Origin: Naegleria gruberi
Taxonomy: Eukaryota
DNA: 64,000 nt
Reading direction: 5' to 3' (one strand)
Assembly: GCA_000004985.1 (NCBI GenBank)
Contig: GG738858.1
This document shows positions 1,065 through 62,315 of this stretch, in pieces (positions within the stretch are counted from its first letter, which is position 1; the number at the start of each line of letters is the position of its first letter). The position numbers and the translations under genes were made by a program. The notes beneath the pieces were generated by a model. The model was not told where the DNA came from. It did not search any database and worked only from the letters and a program-made list of their open reading frames with translations.

Positions 1065-1137
1065 TATACCCTGTGGGACTCGAACCCACAACCCCCGGCT
1101 CCGTAGGCCGATGCTCTTCCAATTGAGCCAAGGGTAC
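1065..1137 (-). tRNA. tRNA-Arg (anticodon ACG), 73 nt
   Basis: Minus-strand cloverleaf GTACCCT-TG-GCTC-AATTGGAA-GAGC-A-TCGGC-CTACGGA-GCCGG-GGGTT-GTGGG-TTCGAGT-CCCAC-AGGGTAT-A. A GTTCGAGTCC T-arm is present. An A6 run lies on + immediately 3' of it (T6 pol III terminator on the gene strand). Confidence 0.85.
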
Positions 1138-3890: not shown

Positions 3891-4338
3891 TTATTCCTTC
3901 TTTTGTTGATTTTCGAAAAGAATACCAGCTTGATATTTCCTGCCCAATTGATATAAACCAGTACATCCAACGAAGAAGTTGACAGCAAACAAACCCCAGT
4001 TCTTTGGAATAATTTGAGTACTATATCTACTCCAAATAAATCCAGTAACAGTAAGAGCTACATTTTGGTTAGTGGAAACCAATTCAGGTGGCTTTGATAA
4101 ATCGGAAATACCAGCGATCACAAGACCCCACTTGAAAACCTGTTAACAATTAAAATTGAATTAAATTTTTTAAAGAATATTTTCTCAACATACTGGTGCC
4201 CAAAAGTGAACTGTAAAATGATTAAATAACAAAGATCACACAATGATGATGTATTAAATATTTACCTGTTCTAATACCAGCTTCTCCGTACCAAAGGTAA
4301 TGACGGAAGTTGGCAAACTTTTGTCCGAATGAAGCCAT
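3891..4338 (-). CDS. mitochondrial pyruvate carrier (MPC2-like); join(4338..4266,4210..4194,4139..3891)
   Basis: The translation ...GEAGIRT-VHFWAP-VFKWGLVIAG...GFIWSRYSTQIIPKNWGLFAVNFFVG matches the MPC2 core (FFWAPIMKWGL...GFIWSRYSLVIIPKNWSLFAVNFFVG). It needs a 17-nt micro-exon encoding (V)HFWAP. The introns are 55 nt (GTAAAT..TTTTACAG) and 54 nt (GTATGT..TTAACAG). Confidence 0.75.
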
Positions 4339-8006: not shown

Positions 8007-8804
8007 TTAATCAAATGTTATCTTCTTTCTTCCATATCTTGTGTAATGAGAATTAAAAGTTTCCAATGTTTGTCTTGAACCATATTCACCATTTGTTAGT
8101 TGATTCAAATCTTCTTTTGCCTTTCCATCTAACTTTCTTGTCATCATTGTATTAAAAGTTGTTTCAAATTGAGCATCATACTCATGTTCATGAGGAGTCG
8201 GTTTTGTTTTTGTTGCTTTAAAAGTTTCATCAATTTCCCTCTTTGTTTGAAGTTTCTTGTTATATAGATCCGATGTTTGAGCAGTTGTATAGGGATTAAG
8301 GGTATATTTCTTTCTATCTATTTCCTCTAATTGTGATTCATTCTTTTTCTTATCGACATGAAGGGTATTTGGATTAATTTTTTGGGGTGGTAAGGCATGA
8401 ACATAATAACTTTCTAACTTGGTTTTCTTTTTTGATGGAGATGGCACACGATTAAGAAGATGAGGTGGTTTAGGAAGTAATTCTTCGGAATTTAAAGCTC
8501 TCCTAACAGTTGCTGAATTTAAATGATCTCCTGTATAATTTAAATGTTGATGTTGTTTTTCGTGTGTCATTTCTGTTGCTCTATTCTCAAGTCGCTTATG
8601 CTCATCATCCACAAGGAAATCAAAATTCTGATTCCAAGCATTTCTACGAGATAATGAGTAAGATCCTACTCATCACAACACTTACCGAATGACTGATTCA
8701 TTCTTTATTGAATTTCTCCAAATTCTATCATTATTTACAATTAGTGAGGGATCCACATCTTTCCATCTCAAACCAAAGGTTCCATTTTCTTTATCCTTGC
8801 TCAT
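8007..8804 (-). CDS. hypothetical protein; join(8804..8686,8643..8007)
   Basis: An ATG exon (MSKDKENGTFGLRWKDVDPSLIVNNDRIWRNSIKNESVIR) is joined through a 42-nt GTAAGT..CGTAG intron to ORF 8007..8612. No domain recognised. Confidence 0.45.
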
Positions 8805-8930
8805 CTTTTTTTTTAATTGGTATTAGTGTTAAGCATCATCACTTCATTTTGATGTAACGGTCAGAGATGAAAAATCGCTGTAGATTTGTTTTGGCGGCTA
8901 AAATAAGATAACCCTTCTTGATTCGAGATA

Positions 8931-9386
8931 TTAAAGGGCAAGCTCTCTCTCAAGATTTTCCCCTTTTCCATTATAAAAGTATCCCTTCCATACTTTACCA
9001 TCATCACTTGTAAAACGACCTCTTCCGTGCATCTTATTATTCACCCAAGTTCCTTCATAACGTTGAGTCTTGTTTGGCCATGTATAAATTCCATTACCTT
9101 CCATCAATCCCTTTACAAAATCACCTTCATATTGAGATCCGTTTGCCCAAGACATCTTTCCTTTACCATGCATTAAATCATTCTCAAAGTGTCCTTCATA
9201 AACATTTGATCCATCTTTATAAATTCCGAATCCATGTTTTTGTTTTTGATTTGTTTCTTCATTAAGCATCCACTCTCCATCATAGATGATATCATCATTG
9301 TAGTAAAACAGTGCCTTGCCAGTTTTTTCTTCTTCTGGTACAACGTTCTTACCTGCAACAGGCTTCTTCTTTGGATCTTTGGACAT
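8931..9386 (-). CDS. MORN-repeat protein, 151 aa
   Basis: Five or more YxGxWxxGxxHGxG repeats (YDGEWMLNE..HGFG, YEGHFENDLMHGKG, YEGDFVKGLMEGNG, YEGTWVNNKMHGRG...). Confidence 0.8.
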   Translation of the reverse strand: MSKDPKKKPVAGKNVVPEEEKTGKALFYYNDDIIYDGEWMLNEETNQKQKHGFGIYKDGSNVYEGHFENDLMHGKGKMSWANGSQYEGDFVKGLMEGNGIYTWPNKTQRYEGTWVNNKMHGRGRFTSDDGKVWKGYFYNGKGENLERELAL

Positions 9387-9619: not shown

Positions 9620-10371
9620 ATGTCATCATCTGAGGAGGAACCAATGAAAAAGTCCGTCAAGGGTATACTCAAGAAATATAAAGATAATAAGAGGAGGTAT
9701 GATTAAATAATAATAATATTATTGATGGATTAATATTTTCTAGTCAAATAACATTTCAATTTGATGAACAAAATCTTCAAGAGAATGAACATATCAAGAA
9801 ATTAATTAAAGAAAATTGTCAAACAATTAATGAAGCAAAAACACCATATAGATATAATTTTGATTCCGATTCGGAAGGAGAAAGTGATCCTAACATTCCT
9901 AGGAGAATGACTCCTGTTGAACATATGGATAGAATTAGTAGTGCTTTGGAACGAAAATTAGAAAATCTAAAATGTGGAAGTGATGAAGAAAGTAATGATC
10001 ATACTATGAATACAACAGATGATCATCATGTAACACCAACAAAATCAATTCCGATCAATAGACAGATTATTGAAGATAACGAATACGGAAGTTATTCACC
10101 AAAATTTGGAGAATTAATAATACCTAATGATCTTAATGGACATTCACCAAACAAACATATTGGATTTTCAATGGAAAACCCTTCACCATCATCATCTATG
10201 GAAACTAAACCTGAAGGGGATCATGAGCATGAAACCCCTGAATTCAAGCAAAAGAGAAAAGAACATTACAATGAATATTTAGTAATGAAGAGAGCAAGAG
10301 AAAGAAATCAACAATTTTTCAAAAATGGTGAAGTAAGCGAGGATGAAAGTGATAGCAGTGATGACGAATAA
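9620..10371 (+). CDS. protein phosphatase 1 inhibitor-2 (IPP-2) homologue; join(9620..9696,9744..10371)
   Basis: The N-terminus MSSSEEEPMKKSVKGILKKYKDNKRR matches the I-2 KGILKN motif. The C-terminal KRKEHYNEYLVMKRARE matches the I-2 KRKLHYNEG motif. The 47-nt intron runs GTATGA..TTCTAG and exon 2 is in frame with ORF 9907. Confidence 0.7.
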
Positions 10372-10589
10372 TTTTAGAATGAAGTTTCTAATAGATTCAA
10401 GATGTTTTTAATTTCAGATGATTTGATTTCTTTTGATTTTAAGCTGATACATTTAACAAATTCTTTTTGCAACAATTGGAATGGATTATCATTAGCAAAT
10501 CTATAAATTATCAATCTTAATGCGTTTAGTTTTTCATTTGGTGTTCATTAATATGTAAATCTTAAAATCTTATCTTTTTCATTATTAAT

Positions 10590-53599: not shown

Positions 53600-54187
53600 T
53601 TGACTGTATGAACAGTGAAGTCAAGAGTTCTTGGACGAATCTTGTTTGTTCAGGTTATTGAAGAAAGTAAAAAGGTCGATCACTCTTCTACTTATTGATC
53701 ATTTGATATGATGAATTGTTCCATGAAAATTGTTGAATTAAATAGAGGTCACTATTTTCCCTTCCATTTATATATTCTTCATCATGATCCTTAATAAAAT
53801 CTATTAAACCGTCACGAATGTTTAAAAATACATCTGCCTCATACCATGATAAGCAAATATTTCCATGTTGTTTTTCAATATAATATGATATTTGATTTGA
53901 AATTATTTCAAATTGATAAAGAAATACAAGCATATCAATATTTTAATCTTTAACTTGACATGATAAAATAGACTTGTTAAAAAAATCAAATCATATATTG
54001 GCGAAGGTTCTTCCTCATCAATATATTTTATTAACAAAGATTCAACTTTAATTTGTAATATTGTAAGTCTTATCACCTTAATATCTGAATGAGAAATATT
54101 ATTATCTATAACAAATTCTTAATACAATTATTCTTTTATCACCAAAGTAATTGAGCAATTGTTGAAAGAGTAAATAACAATCATTTA

Positions 54188-54670
54188 TTACCTCTTTAAT
54201 ACACAATCACTGAAATCAACATCTTTAACACTGTACTTGATATGAGTGATGGAATCTTGATCTCTTCCTCCATTAGTTGTGAAGAATCCATTCTCTTTGA
54301 CTCCTGTAGAATCAAAAGTAAGACAAATTTCATCCTCCCCAACCAAAACAAATGACCTATCAAATGCCTTCAAAAGCCAAAAATCACTTTGACCTGCCTC
54401 AATGTCAAAATATTTGATATGTTCAAGAAAATGACAAAATTCATCCAATGATTTTCTATTCTCGAATCTAATGTTCTTCAAACCAATATAAGGGTTTGTA
54501 ATGTTGCATGTTTTAAATAATGTTGCCAAATTTTCATTCACAAAGAAAGTTCTGTCAGTTTCTCCTCTTTTCAATTTGTCAAAATAAATTTTGAAAGATT
54601 CACTCACTGGAAGTGTCAAATTCAATGCCTCTAATAAATCTGAAACGAAATGTTGGCAATTAGCCCCCAA
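54188..54670 (-). pseudogene. N-terminally truncated paralogue of the PPPDE-domain gene (Cys-motif half plus conserved C-terminal extension only)
   Basis: ANCQHFVSDLLEALNLTLP...FWLLKAFDRSFV...IKYSVKDVDFSD aligns along the last ~160 aa of 51538..53166. An in-frame TAA lies directly upstream, and no plausible intron is found. Confidence 0.5.
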
Positions 54671-54782
54671 TAATGAATAATCTTAGTAATACCGTTTCAG
54701 TTTTACCTAGTTGTAATAAACACCGGAAATTTATTTATGATTTTAACAATAAAAGCTGAAAGTAGTTAAATGATGATATTTG

Positions 54783-54784
<2 letters not shown>

Positions 54785-54818
<34 letters not shown>
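54785..54818. repeat. (AT)17 microsatellite
   Basis: atatat... run. Confidence 0.9.
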
Positions 54819-54821
<3 letters not shown>

Positions 54822-54962
54822 AATTGATGTTAGATATTAGTTGTTCCATTTATTTTTAAACTACTCCATCAACCTCCATGAATCTAGTTGTCTATTTCTT
54901 GTTGTAAGAGTTTTTCTTTGTTTTAATTAACAACTATCACAACTCTACTTTTACTACTTCTA

Positions 54963-55067
54963 ATGTTCTTATCGAAGTTTACTGAGATAAAGTAGTGTTT
55001 CTTGAAAACAACAATTGAATAAACTAATAATAGAAAGTATGCTCAAAAAAATTGTCATACTATGGTC
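54963..55067 (+). repeat. split direct repeat A1 (105 bp; contains gag ATG at 55062)
   Basis: Identical copy at 58999..59103. Confidence 0.85.
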
Positions 55068-56189
55068 GCTAAGAAGCCTCAAGATATTGACTCCTCTTCA
55101 TCTGATGAAGATCTCCCAGCAGTTGAAGTAGAATACCCCACAACACCAGTGAAAGCAAGAAAACAACAAGCTGCTAAGAAGCTTAGAAAGTTAAAGGCCA
55201 TGTCACCTGTAGCTAATAGAAATAAGCGCAAACAATCTACTTCAGTTTCATCATCTAACAGTGCCTTAGATGATGGTATTTCAACTGTTGTTTCCAGTTC
55301 GTTGCTAAGCAATTCAACTTTGTTGGATAGTTCTTCAACTGCACCCTCTTCGTCAAACAATTCGTCTTCTTCCAATTCAGGTAGAGATAGTTTTGCCAGT
55401 AGTTCATCTGAACATGATATCATGGCGATCAAAGCCCAAATGCAAGAAATGATTGGAGTTTTGAGAACCGTAACAGGAAATATCTCTGAACTTACTAAGA
55501 AAGTTCAGGAGAGAGAAGAAGAATCAGATGATGATTTTGTTAATCCAGAAGCTATATCTCCAGAAGTTTGGTTACGTCAAACTTATAGAGACCTTAGAAG
55601 TTCTTACAATGTTCCTTCATCTATTGGAGATGATTTATTACTTTCTGCAGTATCCTCCGAGATACTTAAAGACCGTAAACAAGAGGAGACCAAGAGAAGA
55701 ATTCAATATTTGCTCCTTAAATACAAGGATGTGATTTCCAAGTTTGCCCCAGACATTAGATTGGATGAGATTAACAGTATTGGTTATTCTAAACTAGTAG
55801 AGTTAACTCAAATCAAAATTGAATTGTTGGAATATGCATTGAATTCTCCACTTGATTTTACAGTCATGACAGAGATTACAGAACTTTGTAGAATGATTTG
55901 CAAAGTTGAAGCCCTCTTCCTTAAAGAAGGTTTACAAGTTTCCACTTTCGATGTTGGTAGAGAATTCCTTAACAGATACATTTCTACTAATAGTTTCGAA
56001 ACTGCTGCCGAAAGTGAACTTCATAATATTAGAACAACATATCATTACTACAAAGCAACCAAGCAGCAACAAGGTCCAAAGGGAATTACCAAGAAGTATT
56101 CTAAGAAGAAACCGTTTCAAAAGAAAAACAATAAGGGTCAAGGAAACGGTGGTAAATTCCAAGGAAAAGATAAGGATAAGTCAGAATGA
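55062..56189 (+). CDS. retroelement ORF1, gag-like (S-rich N-terminus, basic KKNNKGQGNGGKFQGKDKDK tail)
   Basis: The first ORF after A1 starts on the ATG inside the repeat. It overlaps the pol frame by ~280 nt. Confidence 0.65.
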   Translation: MVAKKPQDIDSSSSDEDLPAVEVEYPTTPVKARKQQAAKKLRKLKAMSPVANRNKRKQSTSVSSSNSALDDGISTVVSSSLLSNSTLLDSSSTAPSSSNNSSSSNSGRDSFASSSSEHDIMAIKAQMQEMIGVLRTVTGNISELTKKVQEREEESDDDFVNPEAISPEVWLRQTYRDLRSSYNVPSSIGDDLLLSAVSSEILKDRKQEETKRRIQYLLLKYKDVISKFAPDIRLDEINSIGYSKLVELTQIKIELLEYALNSPLDFTVMTEITELCRMICKVEALFLKEGLQVSTFDVGREFLNRYISTNSFETAAESELHNIRTTYHYYKATKQQQGPKGITKKYSKKKPFQKKNNKGQGNGGKFQGKDKDKSE

Positions 56190-58062
56190 CTCTTCCACTC
56201 CCTCCTTCCAAGGAGGAAGATTACAACAGTTTTGGAAAAAGTGGCAAATCTTCCCCAAAACTGTTGCAGAATGGATAAGAGAGGGTATTCCAATCCATTC
56301 AGAAAAAGAAAAATGGATCGATATTCCACTAAGATCTCATTTTTCAGAAAAGGAAGATTCATGGTTAAAGAGCGAAATCTCAGATTTACTCAAAACCAAT
56401 ATTATAGAAATTGGAAACAAGGACACTGTCATAAATCCGATTCACGTGGTTCCGAAGAAAGGCAAAGACCAGTTTCGTCTAATCCTAGATTTGAGATCCA
56501 TAAATGCTGGTATAAACAACGACTCATTCAAAATGGATCATATTCACAAAACTCTAAAGTTTCTATCAAAAGACATGTTAGGAATCAAAATAGATTTGAT
56601 GAAAGGTTATCATCACGTTCCAGTGAAGGAAACAGATCGAAAGTTATTGGGATTCAGGTACAACGGCCAGATTTACCATTACAAGTGCCTACCATTCGGT
56701 CTGAACATTGCTCCAAGATTATTCTCCAAGATAATGAAGGTCTTAGTTCAAAGATGGAGAGTAAGAGGAATCTCGGTATTCATTTATTTAGACGATATCT
56801 TAGTGGTAAATCATTCAAAAGATCAGTTGATCTTAGACAGAGATATAGTTCTAAAGGATTTAGAAGAGTTTGGATTCCTCATTCAAAAAGACAAATGTTG
56901 TTTAAATCCAACTCAATTAATAGAATACCTAGGAGTTTTGTTAGACTTTCATCAAGGTTTGGTAAAAATTCCAGAAGACAAAAGGATTACAGCTTTAGAA
57001 TTCATAGAGGAGCTACTCAATGCTTCCCAGAAACGGCTTTATGTTCCATGCAAGAGAGTTGCCAAGTTCCTAGGAAAGTTGGAATTTCTAACAATTGCCA
57101 ACAAGTACCTTTCACCATTCATGTGTCGTCTTCGAAAGAACATGGTTTCAGTAGTATCAGGAAGAGGTTGGCACGCATCAATGCAAATTCACAAAGGCGC
57201 ATTCAAGGATTTATTGATTCTAAGGGAGTTAATTCAAAAGAACGATGGTCATCCGTTCGAATTGGATTGGATTCTCCCAGTGATTGTGAATTCAGATGCA
57301 ACACCTCAAGGTTTCGGCATTCACTCAGGTTCAATCGTTACTGTTGGAAAGTTCAATGGAGAAGAGCACATCAATGTCAAGGAACTAAGAGCCTTACTGC
57401 TTTATTTCAAACAAGCAGACGAATTAAATCTTTATCCAGATTTCACAAATTTCGAATTGAGAGTAGACAACATGGTAGCCGTGGCATATCTAAAGAAGGG
57501 TTATGGATCAAAAGACGATCTCGCAAAGATAGCAAGAGACATCTCAAAGATTCTAATGAGAAGAAATTGGTGGATTTGCAAAGTGATTTACATCCCATCC
57601 AAACAGAATTTCCTAGCAGACAGGTTGAGTCGATTGATGGATTGGGGATCCACCAAGGAACTAATCGAATTAGTCAACCAAGAATTTGGAATACACCATG
57701 TGGACAGATTTGCAACAACGAGTTCGGCAACTACCCTTGTATTCAATTCATGGAAAGAGAACGACGCGTTCAAAAGTCTTTGGGAAAAAGAACTAGTGAG
57801 TTATTGTGTTCCTCCAATAGGATTGATCAGTCAAGCTCTCATTCATCTTATCAAATCCAGATCAATAGCGACATTTGTAATTCCAGAATGGAGCTCCTCG
57901 ATTTGGTGGCCTCTACTCTTAAAGCTATTAAAGAAGAGAAAAAGTATCACAAGAAGGATGCTTTTAATCAAACTATTATCCGAATTATGGATCAAATTCG
58001 AAGGAACGACGTTCATAATTGCTCATCTGGATGGAAACTTATACTTCAAACCAGAGATTTAG
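55906..58062 (+). CDS. retroelement ORF2, reverse transcriptase/RNase H (pol)
   Basis: The RT motifs are LDLRSIN, FGLNIAPRLF and VFIYLDDILVV. The RNase H end reads IPSKQNFLADRLSR. The frame overlaps the end of gag, so the true pol start is probably upstream of the first ATG, via frameshift. Confidence 0.75.
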   Translation: MKPSSLKKVYKFPLSMLVENSLTDTFLLIVSKLLPKVNFIILEQHIITTKQPSSNKVQRELPRSILRRNRFKRKTIRVKETVVNSKEKIRISQNDSSTPSFQGGRLQQFWKKWQIFPKTVAEWIREGIPIHSEKEKWIDIPLRSHFSEKEDSWLKSEISDLLKTNIIEIGNKDTVINPIHVVPKKGKDQFRLILDLRSINAGINNDSFKMDHIHKTLKFLSKDMLGIKIDLMKGYHHVPVKETDRKLLGFRYNGQIYHYKCLPFGLNIAPRLFSKIMKVLVQRWRVRGISVFIYLDDILVVNHSKDQLILDRDIVLKDLEEFGFLIQKDKCCLNPTQLIEYLGVLLDFHQGLVKIPEDKRITALEFIEELLNASQKRLYVPCKRVAKFLGKLEFLTIANKYLSPFMCRLRKNMVSVVSGRGWHASMQIHKGAFKDLLILRELIQKNDGHPFELDWILPVIVNSDATPQGFGIHSGSIVTVGKFNGEEHINVKELRALLLYFKQADELNLYPDFTNFELRVDNMVAVAYLKKGYGSKDDLAKIARDISKILMRRNWWICKVIYIPSKQNFLADRLSRLMDWGSTKELIELVNQEFGIHHVDRFATTSSATTLVFNSWKENDAFKSLWEKELVSYCVPPIGLISQALIHLIKSRSIATFVIPEWSSSIWWPLLLKLLKKRKSITRRMLLIKLLSELWIKFEGTTFIIAHLDGNLYFKPEI

Positions 58063-58967
58063 GGATGTTGGTTTCGATTAAGGAAGAAACCTTCAAACTT
58101 TACACTAGAAACTATAATGGTTTCTTATGGTTTATTACTGCATTCAATATTTCAATGGATGACCCTTATGCTATTGAGTATTATGCAGCTTATCTTACAA
58201 TTCAAGGTCAAACATCTCGTGTTGAAGCCTTGAGACCATCCCTTCAATTTTGGGCCAATATTGAGAGAAGAGTTTTTCCAATTTCATGGTCTTATGATAA
58301 GATTAAAAGAGGAATTACTCTTATTTGGTCCTTGATTGATAGAAAAGCTTTGAAACGTGATCCAATTTTCTATCATCATATTGAAGGTTTCATTCAGAGA
58401 AAAGATCATTATGATCCTTTCATTTTCAAACTCACTAGTGCCATGTTAGTCATTGGTTTCAGACTTTTCGCTAGACCAGGTGAATTAGCTAGACTCAAGT
58501 GGGGTTATGTTACAAAGCTTAGAAATGGTAACATCAAATTAGATCTCAGTGGTCACAAAACAGATTTCTTTCTACTAGAAAAGCCGATTACTATTGACAA
58601 GCATCTTGAAAATCCTTCAGTGTGTCCAGTGAAATTGCTTTTTGATTACATAGACACTGTACAGCATTTCAAAAAAGCAGATTCACCATTGTTTTCATTG
58701 CAGGACAATATTTTCTTCAACACTGAAGATGTTTCTCAACTTATCAAGAATGCTATGTTCTCTGTTGATTCAGAAATCACTGTTTCTGGTCACAGTTTAC
58801 GTATTGGTGCAACTACTGAGAGTATTATCAAGGGAATTCCTACTCAGGATATTATTATGGGGACTAGACATAAGGATGTGAAATCTTTACAACCTTATCA
58901 AAGACAAGAAGCTCTTGCAGCTCGCCACTTGTCTACTACTCTCCTTTCTCGGGACAATATCCATTAG
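56232..58967 (+). CDS. retroelement ORF3: 911-codon frame overlapping pol, C-terminal 300 aa (58065..58967) is the tyrosine recombinase
   Basis: The YR box I/II reads ARPGELARLKWGYV...GHKTD...HSLRIGATTE...GTRHKDVKSLQPYQR. The upstream ~610 codons are a basic R/S/K-rich frame with no stop, although they overlap pol in AT-rich DNA. Confidence 0.6.
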   Translation: MEKVANLPQNCCRMDKRGYSNPFRKRKMDRYSTKISFFRKGRFMVKERNLRFTQNQYYRNWKQGHCHKSDSRGSEERQRPVSSNPRFEIHKCWYKQRLIQNGSYSQNSKVSIKRHVRNQNRFDERLSSRSSEGNRSKVIGIQVQRPDLPLQVPTIRSEHCSKIILQDNEGLSSKMESKRNLGIHLFRRYLSGKSFKRSVDLRQRYSSKGFRRVWIPHSKRQMLFKSNSINRIPRSFVRLSSRFGKNSRRQKDYSFRIHRGATQCFPETALCSMQESCQVPRKVGISNNCQQVPFTIHVSSSKEHGFSSIRKRLARINANSQRRIQGFIDSKGVNSKERWSSVRIGLDSPSDCEFRCNTSRFRHSLRFNRYCWKVQWRRAHQCQGTKSLTALFQTSRRIKSLSRFHKFRIESRQHGSRGISKEGLWIKRRSRKDSKRHLKDSNEKKLVDLQSDLHPIQTEFPSRQVESIDGLGIHQGTNRISQPRIWNTPCGQICNNEFGNYPCIQFMERERRVQKSLGKRTSELLCSSNRIDQSSSHSSYQIQINSDICNSRMELLDLVASTLKAIKEEKKYHKKDAFNQTIIRIMDQIRRNDVHNCSSGWKLILQTRDLGMLVSIKEETFKLYTRNYNGFLWFITAFNISMDDPYAIEYYAAYLTIQGQTSRVEALRPSLQFWANIERRVFPISWSYDKIKRGITLIWSLIDRKALKRDPIFYHHIEGFIQRKDHYDPFIFKLTSAMLVIGFRLFARPGELARLKWGYVTKLRNGNIKLDLSGHKTDFFLLEKPITIDKHLENPSVCPVKLLFDYIDTVQHFKKADSPLFSLQDNIFFNTEDVSQLIKNAMFSVDSEITVSGHSLRIGATTESIIKGIPTQDIIMGTRHKDVKSLQPYQRQEALAARHLSTTLLSRDNIH

Positions 58968-59000
58968 TTTATTTATTGTTGGTTTTCTTTTAAGAAACAT
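58957..59000 (+). repeat. split direct repeat B1 (44 bp)
   Basis: Identical copy at 59778..59821. Confidence 0.8.
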
Positions 59001-59103
59001 GTTCTTATCGAAGTTTACTGAGATAAAGTAGTGTTTCTTGAAAACAACAATTGAATAAACTAATAATAGAAAGTATGCTCAAAAAAATTGTCATACTATG
59101 GTC
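58999..59103 (+). repeat. split direct repeat A2
   Basis: Identical to A1. Confidence 0.85.
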
Positions 59104-59777
59104 CCACCCTTGCCCACCCTCTATTATTATTAGTTTATTCAAATCAAAGGTTCTAACCTTTGTCCTTAATACTTTGGAATGTGATTTTTTAACCAATCCT
59201 CAAATATTTTCTCAATTGATTGAAAGATTTCACTCTATTTGTATTATTGAAAGATGATTGTTATCATCTTTTTATCTTTGTATTATTATTTGATATTTGA
59301 CATCATTTATTGATGTTTTTTATCATGATTGGTGATCTAAAACCAATTGTTGGTGATCTAAAACCGACAGATCAACTTTATGTTGATTAGAAGGTATCTG
59401 ATACCTTTCCCTTACTATTAGTAAGGCAATATGTACTGAACATACCTCTTTTCTCATTCTCGTTTTGATTCGTAAGTGTCAAGACGGTTGAGTAGGTTTT
59501 TTAATTCTTAACTTTTTAGTTTTTACCGATTTTTTTTTTTTTTCCTACAAGAGTAGGTTTTTTTATATGGGAGTTGTTTCTCCAAAAAACAACTTGGTTT
59601 ATTGTCAGATTGCTTTAATTTAGTTTAGTTTTTGCTTTTTGTTAAGAAATCATAGTATGATTGTATTGATTAGTTTATTTAATTTCTGGACCTGCTGAAT
59701 AAAGCTTAATGCCTAAAAACAGCAGTAACCAGGCTACAAACTACCTAAGAATAGGTAGAAGTTGTAGTGTGAGCTTT

Positions 59778-59821
59778 ATATCCATTAGTTTATTTATTGT
59801 TGGTTTTCTTTTAAGAAACAT
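59778..59821 (+). repeat. split direct repeat B2
   Basis: Identical to B1. Confidence 0.8.
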
Positions 59822-59878
59822 ATCAACTGATGGGTAAAAACCACAAACAAACCAACTAGCTGTGACCTTTCAAAAAAA

Positions 59879-61813
59879 ATGCAAAGACCAAACATTTCAC
59901 AGGATTTAGAGTCTCACATTTCCAGCAGCACATCAACAGCTTCATTTTCCAACTTACCTTACGTTAATTCAGAGAAACATCTAATCAAGTCAAATGTCAA
60001 TGGCAAGTCAAGATGTAATTTACCTACAATTCTCTTACTATTATTCATCCTCACAAGTTTGGTGATGATTTTTTATTTGACGTCCAAGCGAGGAGTAAGA
60101 GGAGAAGCCAGAGTATTCCCTGTCACTTATCTAGATGTCGATTTCACAAATTCTGAAAATTTAAAACTCAACCGAGTGAGAGGTCTTTGTAAAATATTCT
60201 TATCAACCTATTATTTGTTTAATTATAATGAAAAATCACCTAATTATGTTCCACCAACAGTTATTGGTGCTGACGGTGCTCCTGAAGCAAAATATAGTAA
60301 GTTTGATGGTTGGCATTTAATTAGTGAAAATTGACATGTGAAATGTAAAGCTCATTGGAAGAAGATTGAGAGGACTTTTCAATTTTTATCGGGTGGAGAG
60401 TCTAACTATATTGATGATCATGATATTATTGTTTTCAGTGATGCAACAGATGTTTTATTCATCAATAATATTGAAAATGTCAAGAAAGTATACGAAACTT
60501 ACTATATCAAGGAAATTGCTAATATTGATTTGAAAGATAGTGAGAGAGATTGGCCTATTGTGTTTATTGCTGAAAAGAATAAGTGGCCACCAAATGATTT
60601 CATTCAAAATATGTTTACAGTAAGTGTTTCTAATAGAATTTACTAATTTTCTCGATTCATACTCTAGGAAGATTGTCATAATTATGTGGGGGTGGGTGGG
60701 TCGTGAAAAAAGGATGTCCATAATTACGTGGTCCAGAGTGGGTCAGAAAGTAGAGCAGAGCAAAAAACAAAAATTGGCAAAAGTAGAGCCGAAGGTTTAT
60801 TAGCCAAGAGTGAGACAGTGTTCAAAGTATCAATTATCACTTGTTCTGCTAGCAACAAGTACTTCTGGGTTCTTGATTGTTTGTGTACCAACAACTTTGG
60901 GCAGGCATTCATCTAGATTGTTATGGTTGAATGTGCTATGGCTGATGTGGAAGGAAGCAAAGGGAGAACTCTCCTCCTGGTACTGATGAAGGTTGGTAGT
61001 TAGCAGGGTGATGAAATCATGAGTAATTGTTGTTTGTTGTTTTTTTTTGTTGAATATAACGGTCAGAACATTCAACTTTCAGCGGTAACATGTTTGGTAG
61101 TGTGAAAAAACTCACATGCAGTGGCCAGGATTTGTTGGGACGATCTTACAGTGAGGTTGGGTGGGTCAAAAAGTGAGGGTCGTAATGACAATCTTCCCTA
61201 TTAGAAAACACCTGAGGAGGAGAATATGGTCGAAAAATACTACTATGACATTAATGGCTATAGAGTTAAGAGAAATTGTGCATCAGCAAATGATAGAATT
61301 TATTTAAATAGTGGACTTTACGTTGGAAGAAAACGTGATATTAGAAAGGCACTTTCCATTGGATTGAATGTGAAAAGAGGTGAACCAAAGGAAAGAATTG
61401 AAGATCAAGCGCTATTCCAATACATTTATGCCACCAATAAGTATCCAATTCTTATGGATTGTGAAAAGAAAATGTTTTACAGTCCATTCTCAGCTTGTGA
61501 TACAATTGTTAGTGAGGAAGAGAAGAAGTGGTCGTGTTCTATTCGTGATGGTCAGGAGGAGACACCAGATAGTGTTGTCTACGTTCATTCAAATGGTGGA
61601 TTTTGTTATTCACTTTGTAATTGTTTCACTTCAATGAAACAAAAAGGAATGTTCAAGAATTTAATGGAACAGTATCAGGACAAGTTGAGTTTCAAGTCGT
61701 ATGATATTAATTCTAGAAAAGTGAGAAGTGTTTTGATGAAATATGCTTGTGGACACTTTGTTGATGAAGATTTCGCTTTGGATTCATGTAATACTCAACC
61801 TCCTCCTGCTTAG
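59879..61813 (+). CDS. type-II membrane GT-A glycosyltransferase, PLOD/LH3-GT-like; join(59879..60619,61205..61813) with an in-frame TGA at 60335..60337
   Basis: The TM anchor is LPTILLLLFILTSLVMIFYL. KAHWKKIERTF..HDIIVFSDATDVLF..PIVFIAEKNKWP..RIYLNSGLYVG..VVYVHSNGG is colinear with the PLOD3 GT domain QKVRWLKKEM..DMIIMFVDSYDVIL..RLLFSAESFCWP..RFLNSGGFIGF..VVHGNG. The 585-nt intron 60620..61204 contains the MITE-like element. Confidence 0.65.
60667..61197. mobile_element. 531-bp non-autonomous TIR element (MITE-like) with 13-bp terminal inverted repeats and 3-bp CTA target-site duplication
   Basis: The left end is GGAAGATTGTCAT (60667..60679). The right end is ATGACAATCTTCC (61185..61197). 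CTA flanks both sides (60664..60666 and 61198..61200). Internally GGGTGGGTC/AAAAAG motifs repeat, and there is no coding capacity. Confidence 0.6.
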
Positions 61814-61928: not shown

Positions 61929-62242
61929 TTGTGTTGCAGTCATAAAATATTAACTTATTGCTGTTAGCATTTATTAAGGTTAAATTGTATTGATGAACAA
62001 TTTATTGTGCTCCCTATGATTTTTCTTCTTGTTAACCATCATTCTCACTATTTTCCCAATCATATTGAGCTAGTAATTCTGTAATCTTTTCGTGTAATTA
62101 AAAAATTAGGAAAAGCTATCATCACACCATGCCATGGATGGCTGGCCTGTTTATCAGGAGGAATCAGTAATTCCTTTATTCACAGAGGCACCACTCTGGT
62201 CCAACTCTGCTGATAGTAATAAAGAATAAGAAAAAAGGTTAG

Positions 62243-62315
62243 CTCCCCCTGGTGGGCTCGAACCACCGACCTGCAGATTAACAGTCTGACGCTCTACCGA
62301 CTGAGCTAAGGGGGA
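62243..62315 (-). tRNA. tRNA-Asn (anticodon GTT), 73 nt
   Basis: The minus-strand sequence is TCCCCCT-TA-GCTC-AGTCGGTA-GAGC-G-TCAGA-CTGTTAA-TCTGC-AGGTC-GGTGG-TTCGAGC-CCACC-AGGGGGA-G. A T6 run lies directly downstream on the gene strand. Confidence 0.85.

Follow-up and report, generated by a model that had tools for sequence, protein, structure and literature searches.

A DIRS-order tyrosine-recombinase retrotransposon of Naegleria gruberi with split direct repeats and a probable 674-bp non-coding 3′ module

The 64,000-nt stretch of Naegleria gruberi DNA analysed here (the window; contig GG738858.1 of GenBank assembly GCA_000004985.1) contains a 4,859-bp element in which a gag-like gene, a pol gene and a tyrosine recombinase (YR) gene lie among two different direct repeats, A and B (Table 1). 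The evidence supports its assignment as a tyrosine-recombinase retrotransposon of the DIRS order, with split direct repeats instead of inverted repeats of the DIRS1 type. A window-wide repeat search finds a single copy of the element, and the adjacent open reading frames (ORFs) are 100% identical to the N. gruberi proteins EFC46567, EFC46570 and EFC46440. The repeat anatomy had been proposed in a first-pass annotation of the sequence, as A and B direct repeats in the order A1–ORFs–B1/A2–spacer–B2, with B1 and A2 overlapping by 2 nt, A2 and B2 lying 674 bp apart and the gag ATG inside repeat A. Each of these statements proved exact: both repeat pairs are 100% identical, the overlap is the dinucleotide AT, the distance is exactly 674 bp and the ATG, at 55062, lies inside A1, where gag has its 5′ leader and its first two codons. 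No further A or B copies occur elsewhere in the 64-kb window, and two repeat matches were obtained in none of 100 dinucleotide shuffles (A and B tested).

The left end of A is a true element boundary, because a 99% identical locus (L001, from ENA sample ERZ929261) carries the same element at another site, with a 60-nt 5′ flank unrelated to the window and identity from A position 2 onwards. The possibility that A is flanking host DNA, raised in the first-pass annotation, fails on the same comparison. Another contig of sample ERZ929261, L006, shows that the sample is genomic DNA from an organism closely related to N. gruberi. No target-site duplication flanks the element and it has no long terminal repeats (LTRs). 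The AT of the B1/A2 overlap recurs at both outer ends (left, TTCTA/AT...; right, ...CAT/ATCAAC), as would be expected if, as we infer, the recombinase crosses over within a dinucleotide common to both partners; the predicted empty allele would read ...ACTTCTA-AT-ATCAACTG... across 54962/59822. A search for such an empty site covered L006, which begins 346 nt past B2, L008, which is too divergent and not syntenic upstream, and P0138, which represents this very locus on a second N. gruberi scaffold, its gag-to-host-gene arrangement unchanged; none was recovered that would prove the right boundary. An (AT)17 microsatellite lies at 54785–54818, 145 nt 5′ of the left end of the element.

The coding region has the domain order gag–reverse transcriptase (RT)–RNase H–YR without an integrase, as first proposed and here confirmed by Pfam, motifs and a family alignment; no integrase or protease domain was found in any element ORF. 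That proposal was right in its order but missed a methyltransferase (MT)-like domain between RNase H and YR, and it was right that a YR is present but wrong to make it the C-terminal part of pol, since it is a separate ORF in another frame. Its gag label fits by position, and ORF1 is called gag by position only: no homology was found in Pfam or PDB, with a four-member profile included. In an alignment of 18 sequences, the YLDD motif of RT and the D-E-D-D columns of RNase H are invariant. The MT-like domain matches Pfam Dam (PF05869) at residues 489–582 with E=7.8e-4, a weak match below the gathering score; Dam is matched by all 18 aligned relatives, the window included (best E=5.5e-9), PCIF1_WW by 2 of the 18, and the aligned MT domains have DxFA, PP and PxWPS..W.P motifs in common. 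The domain is probably inactive, because VPPI replaces the catalytic N/DPPF; loss of activity agrees with what has been published on the MT domains of DIRS elements (PMC4738411). For the YR, all four family members match PF00589, the best with E=4.7e-10. Its R-K-H-R-H/W-Y residues are conserved across the family, and matches in PDB, to XerA and Cre, are weak. On the minus strand, a 117-codon ORF at 55079–55432 runs antisense to gag in its Ser-rich 5′ part. This ORF, open in L001 too, is probably a by-product of low-complexity sequence.

Table 1. Coordinates of the element and its parts in the window.
Feature	Position	Strand	Details
Whole element, 4,859 bp	54963..59821	+	A1 - gag - pol/X - YR - B1A2 - spacer - B2; from repeats and ORFs
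A1, left terminal repeat, 105 bp	54963..55067	+	100% identical to 58999-59103; left boundary within 1 nt of that of L001
ORF1, gag-like, 375 aa	55062..56189	+	Ser/Lys-rich, no zinc knuckle, ends in TGA; N. gruberi EFC46443/EFC35641
pol reading frame	55906..58062	+	+1 relative to gag; RT, RNase H, MT-like
AATGAC	56185..56190	+	gag stop TGA (56187-56189), then C; candidate for recoding by readthrough and/or +1 shift
X, 625-codon open frame 0	56190..58064	+	overprints pol, continuous with YR
RT	about 56449-56937	+	Pfam RVT_1 E=3.8e-26; YLDD at 56785
RNase H	about 57289-57630	+	D-E-D-D
MT-like domain	about 57643-58059	+	DRFA at 57700; VPPI at 57808 where N/DPPF expected
YR ORF, 300 aa	58065..58967	+	conserved ATG 3 nt past pol stop
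YR catalytic residues			R137 (ARPGE), K165 (GHKTD), H243-x-x-R246, H269, Y278
B1, internal copy of right terminus, 44 bp	58957..59000	+	100% identical to B2; begins inside last three YR codons
B1/A2 junction, imperfect hairpin/inverted repeat	58963..59064	.	around palindrome AACATGTT (58996-59003)
A2, internal copy of left terminus, 105 bp	58999..59103	+	100% identical to A1; shares AT with B1
Spacer, non-coding module, 674 bp	59104..59777	+	between A2 and B2
ATTAGTTTATT motifs in spacer	59129, 59669		11-mer
Tandem 16-mers TTGGTGATCTAAAACC	59329, 59350		in spacer
Degenerate A-like segment	59575-59596		borderline score
Degenerate B-like segment	59615-59653		borderline score
B2, right terminal repeat, 44 bp	59778..59821	+	ends 57 nt upstream of next host ORF

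With this content, the element shows the features of the DIRS order, namely RT and RNase H, a YR replacing DDE integrase and protease, and the absence of LTRs and target-site duplications. A Crypton without an RT, an outcome that the first-pass annotation had considered, is ruled out: RT and YR lie side by side in one repeat-bounded unit in the window element and in L001, L002 and L003, and RT belongs to the unit at five loci. Within the order, the MT-like domain 3′ of RNase H and the split direct repeats agree with PAT-like elements (Pat1 of Panagrellus/Caenorhabditis, kangaroo, TOC3), which share the set of gag, RT–RNase H–MT and YR, the arrangement of A at the 5′ end and B–A–...–B at the 3′ end, and the lack of a DDE integrase and of LTRs. 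The window element deviates from them by the 674 bp between A2 and B2, a hairpin-rich module, by a YR that is co-oriented with pol, by a YR frame that overprints all of pol and by its heterolobosean host. The PAT-like assignment is a predicted one, drawn from the MT domain and the repeat architecture. Of the PAT/Ngaro type named at first, the PAT-like half is borne out by these two characters, but the Ngaro half is not, given the MT domain and the pol/YR overlap, two traits that put the element in the DIRS1/PAT group. VIPER of Trypanosoma cruzi, likewise from a Discoba host, resembles the element in having split direct repeats and a unique A2–B2 stretch; in VIPER, the A2–unique–B2 block is also dispersed separately, as SIRE. 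By contrast, VIPER has the order gag–YR–RT/RNase H, no MT domain and a unique stretch of about 30 bp rather than 674 bp, and the order gag–RT/RNase H/MT–YR, the MT domain and the Naegleria host rule it out here.

The element belongs to a family with several members in N. gruberi. Its gag-like ORF is EFC46443, to which EFC35641 on a second contig is identical, and the 90% identity cluster of EFC46443 additionally contains EFC43433, EFC36891, EFC35816 and one fragment; in all, N. gruberi has at least five gag copies beyond the window's own. Since several gag copies are at least 90% identical, the family is multi-copy and young in N. gruberi, where transposable elements (TEs) are very few, reportedly about 0.28% of the genome (bioRxiv 10.64898/2026.06.24.734286). 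The window copy is itself young, because A1 and A2, and B1 and B2, are 100% identical and every ORF is open; we predict that this intact DIRS/PAT-type retrotransposon is probably still mobile. Outside the family, the closest database relatives show at most 31% identity. The layout gag–pol–YR–B–A was found in four related metagenome loci. Scanning with the YR alignment added one short locus from the metagenomes, L005, and none from the viral collection.

The gag and YR genes share a reading frame. Counted from the ATG of gag to the stop of YR, this frame is 1,301 codons long, with a sole interruption, the gag TGA at 56187. Between the two genes runs X, which lies wholly on top of pol and would encode a basic (pI 10.8), Ser/Arg-rich product, with 26–36% identity between relatives. 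X has no stop, compared with a mean of 41 and a minimum of 26 stops in 2,000 synonymous shuffles of pol. The same holds at greater distance: in the metagenome relatives L002, L003 and L004, whose pol is 47–52% identical to that of the window, the X frame is likewise open and each locus has one gag–YR stop, always TGA-C within a conserved AATGAC. In L001, C-to-T changes at 1749 and 2106 give two TAA codons in X and are synonymous in pol; because such changes create TAA silently in pol, the X frame would close easily without selection. Deamination of methylated TE DNA might, as far as so few sites can tell, explain the transition bias. A 'long ORF overlap' is already known in half of DIRS1-like elements (PMC3266345); in-frame continuity of gag, X and YR with a single UGA-C was not found described in the DIRS literature cited here.

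How these frames would be expressed can be proposed from the recoding candidate AATGAC. Gag-Pol is probably the product of a +1 shift that takes place no later than the hungry UGA codon, with GAA and then GAC being read, and the junction peptide would be ...KDKSE/DSSTPSF; alternatively, pol may be initiated at the pol-frame ATG (55951). YR would be made as Gag-X-YR through UGA readthrough, with the junction ...KDKSE-x-LFHSLLPRRKITT (x being the amino acid that is put in at UGA), or by reinitiation at the YR ATG. Public gene models of the family are chimeric: that of EFC35816 (P0131) joins gag residues 1–344 to YR residues 83–300 across a predicted GT-AG intron that removes pol (window 56093–58309), and that of P0138 fuses gag residues 1–178 to the downstream host gene. 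Both are probably gene-finder artefacts that use the shared gag/YR frame.

The repeats meet at the B1/A2 junction, which we presume to be a copy of the circle junction and the recombination site. An 8-nt palindrome, AACATGTT, straddles the B/A joint, and in the arms around it B pairs with A positions 33–66 (inverted repeats I3–I6), which are an imperfect inverted copy of B. The match between A (55004–55028) and B (59784–59808) is 80% complementary over 25 nt and reaches about 38 nt in the fold, with the left arm 32–41 nt from the end; as single-stranded DNA, B1/A2 folds with z=-6.0. The L001 junction is identical to that of the window. L002 and L005, which belong to another subfamily with other arm sequences, share this layout: the YR stop is followed by a 5′ arm that ends in AACATGT and is separated by a loop of about 30 nt from the 3′ arm complementary to it (L002 junction fold, z=-4.0). 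The window and L002 hairpins were compared through separate folds, and the retention of a hairpin and an ACATGT core despite different arms, in relatives at 52% identity, is compensatory conservation.

Between A2 and B2, the spacer has no ORF longer than 51 codons and shows no similarity to the internal region, to relatives or to the remaining window by blastn or tblastx; no Rfam family was detected in 54000–61000. The tandem duplication reported in it by the first-pass annotation is present, as the 16-mer TTGGTGATCTAAAACC at 59329 and 59350. Its connection to the element is seen in the 11-mer ATTAGTTTATT, which occurs 6 times in 64 kb against 0.26 expected, every time within the element: in A1 (-), B1 (+), A2 (-) and B2 (+), and twice in the spacer. 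This terminal 11-mer is probably a recognition motif for the recombinase or RT. Additionally, the 18 nt at spacer positions 59125–59142 match part of A perfectly in inverted orientation. Because of the element-specific 11-mers, the A- and B-like pieces and the exact repeats that bracket it, we take the spacer to be element-related. It is also highly structured, with an RNA fold of z=-6.7, about ten short perfect hairpins and the highest density of such hairpins in the window (6 per 700 nt versus a mean of 1.0).

Other origins and roles for parts of the spacer were considered and rejected. Against an origin as a deletion derivative of the internal region, blastn and tblastx detect no similarity. 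As for a tRNA primer-binding site, a spacer 16-mer starting with TGG (TGGTGATC...) was compared with the window's two tRNAs and matches the 3′ end of neither. The genes for these are tRNA-Asn(GTT) at 62242–62315 (-), 2.4 kb downstream of the element, and tRNA-Arg(ACG) at 1065–1137 (-). The first-pass annotation recognised the spacer from no described element; its arrangement has a small precedent in VIPER/SIRE, A2–about 30 bp–B2 (PMC6681497). A large structured A2–B2 module is nevertheless unusual as judged against the papers cited here.

On balance we think it probable that the window holds a split-direct-repeat element whose 3′ part carries the 674-bp stretch as a non-coding module. The mechanism that would follow is the established class model applied to this anatomy, with the parts as observed in the window and the steps as in the model (PMC4157794, PMC7192593, PMC3266345; these and PMC9210276 also supply the family definitions). 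A transcript would start inside A1 and end in the 3′ region. RT would copy this transcript; the internal B1A2, acting as template or splint, would supply the ends that are missing and link B2 to A1 in circular DNA, where the B2/A1 joint would equal B1/A2. YR would then recombine the circle joint (core AACATGTT) with a target that shares the AT crossover dinucleotide, creating no target-site duplication, and the hairpin-rich 674 bp would be carried along as the non-coding 3′ module of the element. An integral module is favoured because both repeat pairs are 100% identical.

Several observations weigh against this account. First, an AATAAA lies at 59698, 80 nt before B2; should it serve as the poly(A) signal, transcripts would stop short of B2, and the simple model does not predict this. 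Second, L001, the only close relative that continues beyond A2, has there a second gag, 2–3% diverged, and no spacer. Because its A2 precedes a gag, the spacer is not obligatory in every copy. Third, no conserved RNA structure was found 3′ of the UGA, where the window fold is weak (z=-2.6) and the folds of relatives are not stable. Finally, seven DIRS-like sequences were already known from N. gruberi, and Piednoel et al. placed them among DIRS1-like elements, by TBLASTX only; they judged them too degraded for phylogeny and left their termini undescribed (PMC3266345).

The L001 arrangement leads to a rival explanation that we regard as possible, with the odds against it: that the locus is a head-to-tail composite of an autonomous [A-ORFs-B] unit (54963–59000) and a SIRE-like, non-autonomous [A-674 bp-B] unit (58999–59821). 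Such a composite could have originated when a circle integrated at a resident unit's boundary, or when units recombined with each other; the split-repeat look would then be a by-product of the tandem, and each unit could move alone through its B/A joint. A cassette organization is favoured because L001 carries gag after B–A, as a tandem of two distinct units. The physical B–A–gag joint in ERZ929261 can be inferred because the assembly k of 127 is smaller than B plus A, at 147 nt; in the second L001 unit the gag ATG is changed to ATA (4183–4185). Circumstantially, the JGI contig of P0002 (77% identical) has an antisense ORF after YR, at the place expected of the gag-antisense ORF, and because L001, and more weakly P0002, differ from the window, copies are not alike in what lies between A2 and the next B. 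The spacer is unlike the internal region and yet shares the 11-mer of the termini and contains degenerate pieces resembling A and B. Precedents also exist: the A2–30 bp–B2 of T. cruzi VIPER is the dispersed repeat SIRE (PMC6681497), solo AB units are known for Cafeteria Ngaro elements (PMC8547959), and DIRS-1 prefers DIRS-1 as an insertion target (PMC7192593). By contrast, the complete identity of A1 with A2 and of B1 with B2 is expected from one replication event and less from independent units, no free-standing A-674-B unit occurs in the 64-kb window, and the canonical split-direct-repeat model requires an internal B–A copy anyway.

A bolder proposal combines the coding and non-coding peculiarities, and as a whole we offer it only tentatively, at somewhat longer odds than the composite. 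Here, one AA-UGA-C site would yield Gag, Gag-Pol (by +1 shift) and Gag-X-YR (by readthrough), with X translated and perhaps supplying the nucleic-acid binding that a gag lacking a zinc knuckle does not have. At the same time, A2-674 bp-B2 would be a separately mobilisable, promoter-bearing unit of structured non-coding RNA, a SIRE-like parasite or helper, in a family of interchangeable [A-x-B] cassettes at a palindromic recombination site.

[quoted passage not shown] The coding region does have DIRS1-like character, since an MT domain and a long pol/YR overlap, beyond which the catalytic YR domain lies at the 3′ end, are typical of that group (PMC3266345), to which Piednoel et al. also assigned their N. 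gruberi sequences. DIRS1-like elements (DIRS-1 of Dictyostelium and relatives) further resemble the window element in their degenerate Dam/PCIF1-like MT domain, in a circle-junction copy just after YR and in making no target-site duplication. The termini are in part inverted copies of each other too, through the 25–38-nt imperfect inverted repeat between A 33–66 and B. However, DIRS1-like elements have long ITRs and a reverse-complementary internal region, whereas in the window long ITRs are absent, B1A2 repeats B2 and A1 in direct orientation and is only partly self-complementary, and the inverted match is short, imperfect and, on the left, subterminal. An inverted arrangement is seen in L009, a 30-kb ENA contig with a pol relative of 28% identity: its YR is directly followed by an inverted repeat, perfect over 79 nt (8761–8839 and 9060–9138), which is a DIRS1-style internal complementary region, unlike the direct B1A2 of the window. 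L009 also has a tandem array containing ACATGTG at 10258–10482. The mixture of traits in the window element fits the reported homoplasy of these traits (PMC4157794).

Least probable, and largely refuted, is that the element is of Ngaro type, which shares the A1–[ORFs]–B1A2B2 repeat order (PMC9210276) and the order gag–RT/RNase H–YR, or that host DNA, a nested insertion or an assembly artefact accounts for the spacer and B2, a reading for which the lack of an empty site leaves some room: Ngaro elements have no MT domain and usually no ORF overlaps, so the MT domain and the 625-codon pol/YR overlap contradict their definition (PMC3266345), while the spacer carries element-specific motifs between exact element repeats, the units are adjacent rather than nested, and P0138 repeats the arrangement on a second scaffold.

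Downstream of the element, a separate 531-bp insertion occupies 60667–61197, between the host ORFs EFC46445 and EFC46446. The orthologous L006 (99.2–99.8% identical) and the more distant L008 both lack it. Its terminal inverted repeats are perfect over 13 nt (GGAAGATTGTCAT...ATGACAATCTTCC), and it is flanked on each side by CTA, which is single in L006. These features identify it as a polymorphic DNA transposon resembling a miniature inverted-repeat transposable element, with a 3-bp target-site duplication.

The class of the retrotransposon is already known and DIRS-like sequences have already been reported in N. gruberi; what the copy adds is insight into a class already described rather than a new class. 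What is unusual about this copy is its large structured A2–B2 module, its single-stop gag/X/YR frame, kept across about 50% divergence, its conserved junction hairpin and its intactness. An intact copy with identical repeat pairs and near-identical paralogues makes a tractable, and to judge from these sequences probably active, YR retrotransposon available in a culturable protist. Its combination of DIRS1-like coding traits with PAT-like repeats and a quasi-palindromic junction bears on how inverted-repeat and split-direct-repeat termini interconvert (PMC4157794). Finally, the conserved single-stop gag/X/YR frame makes the unexplained 'long ORF overlap' of DIRS elements testable by mass spectrometry and ribosome profiling.

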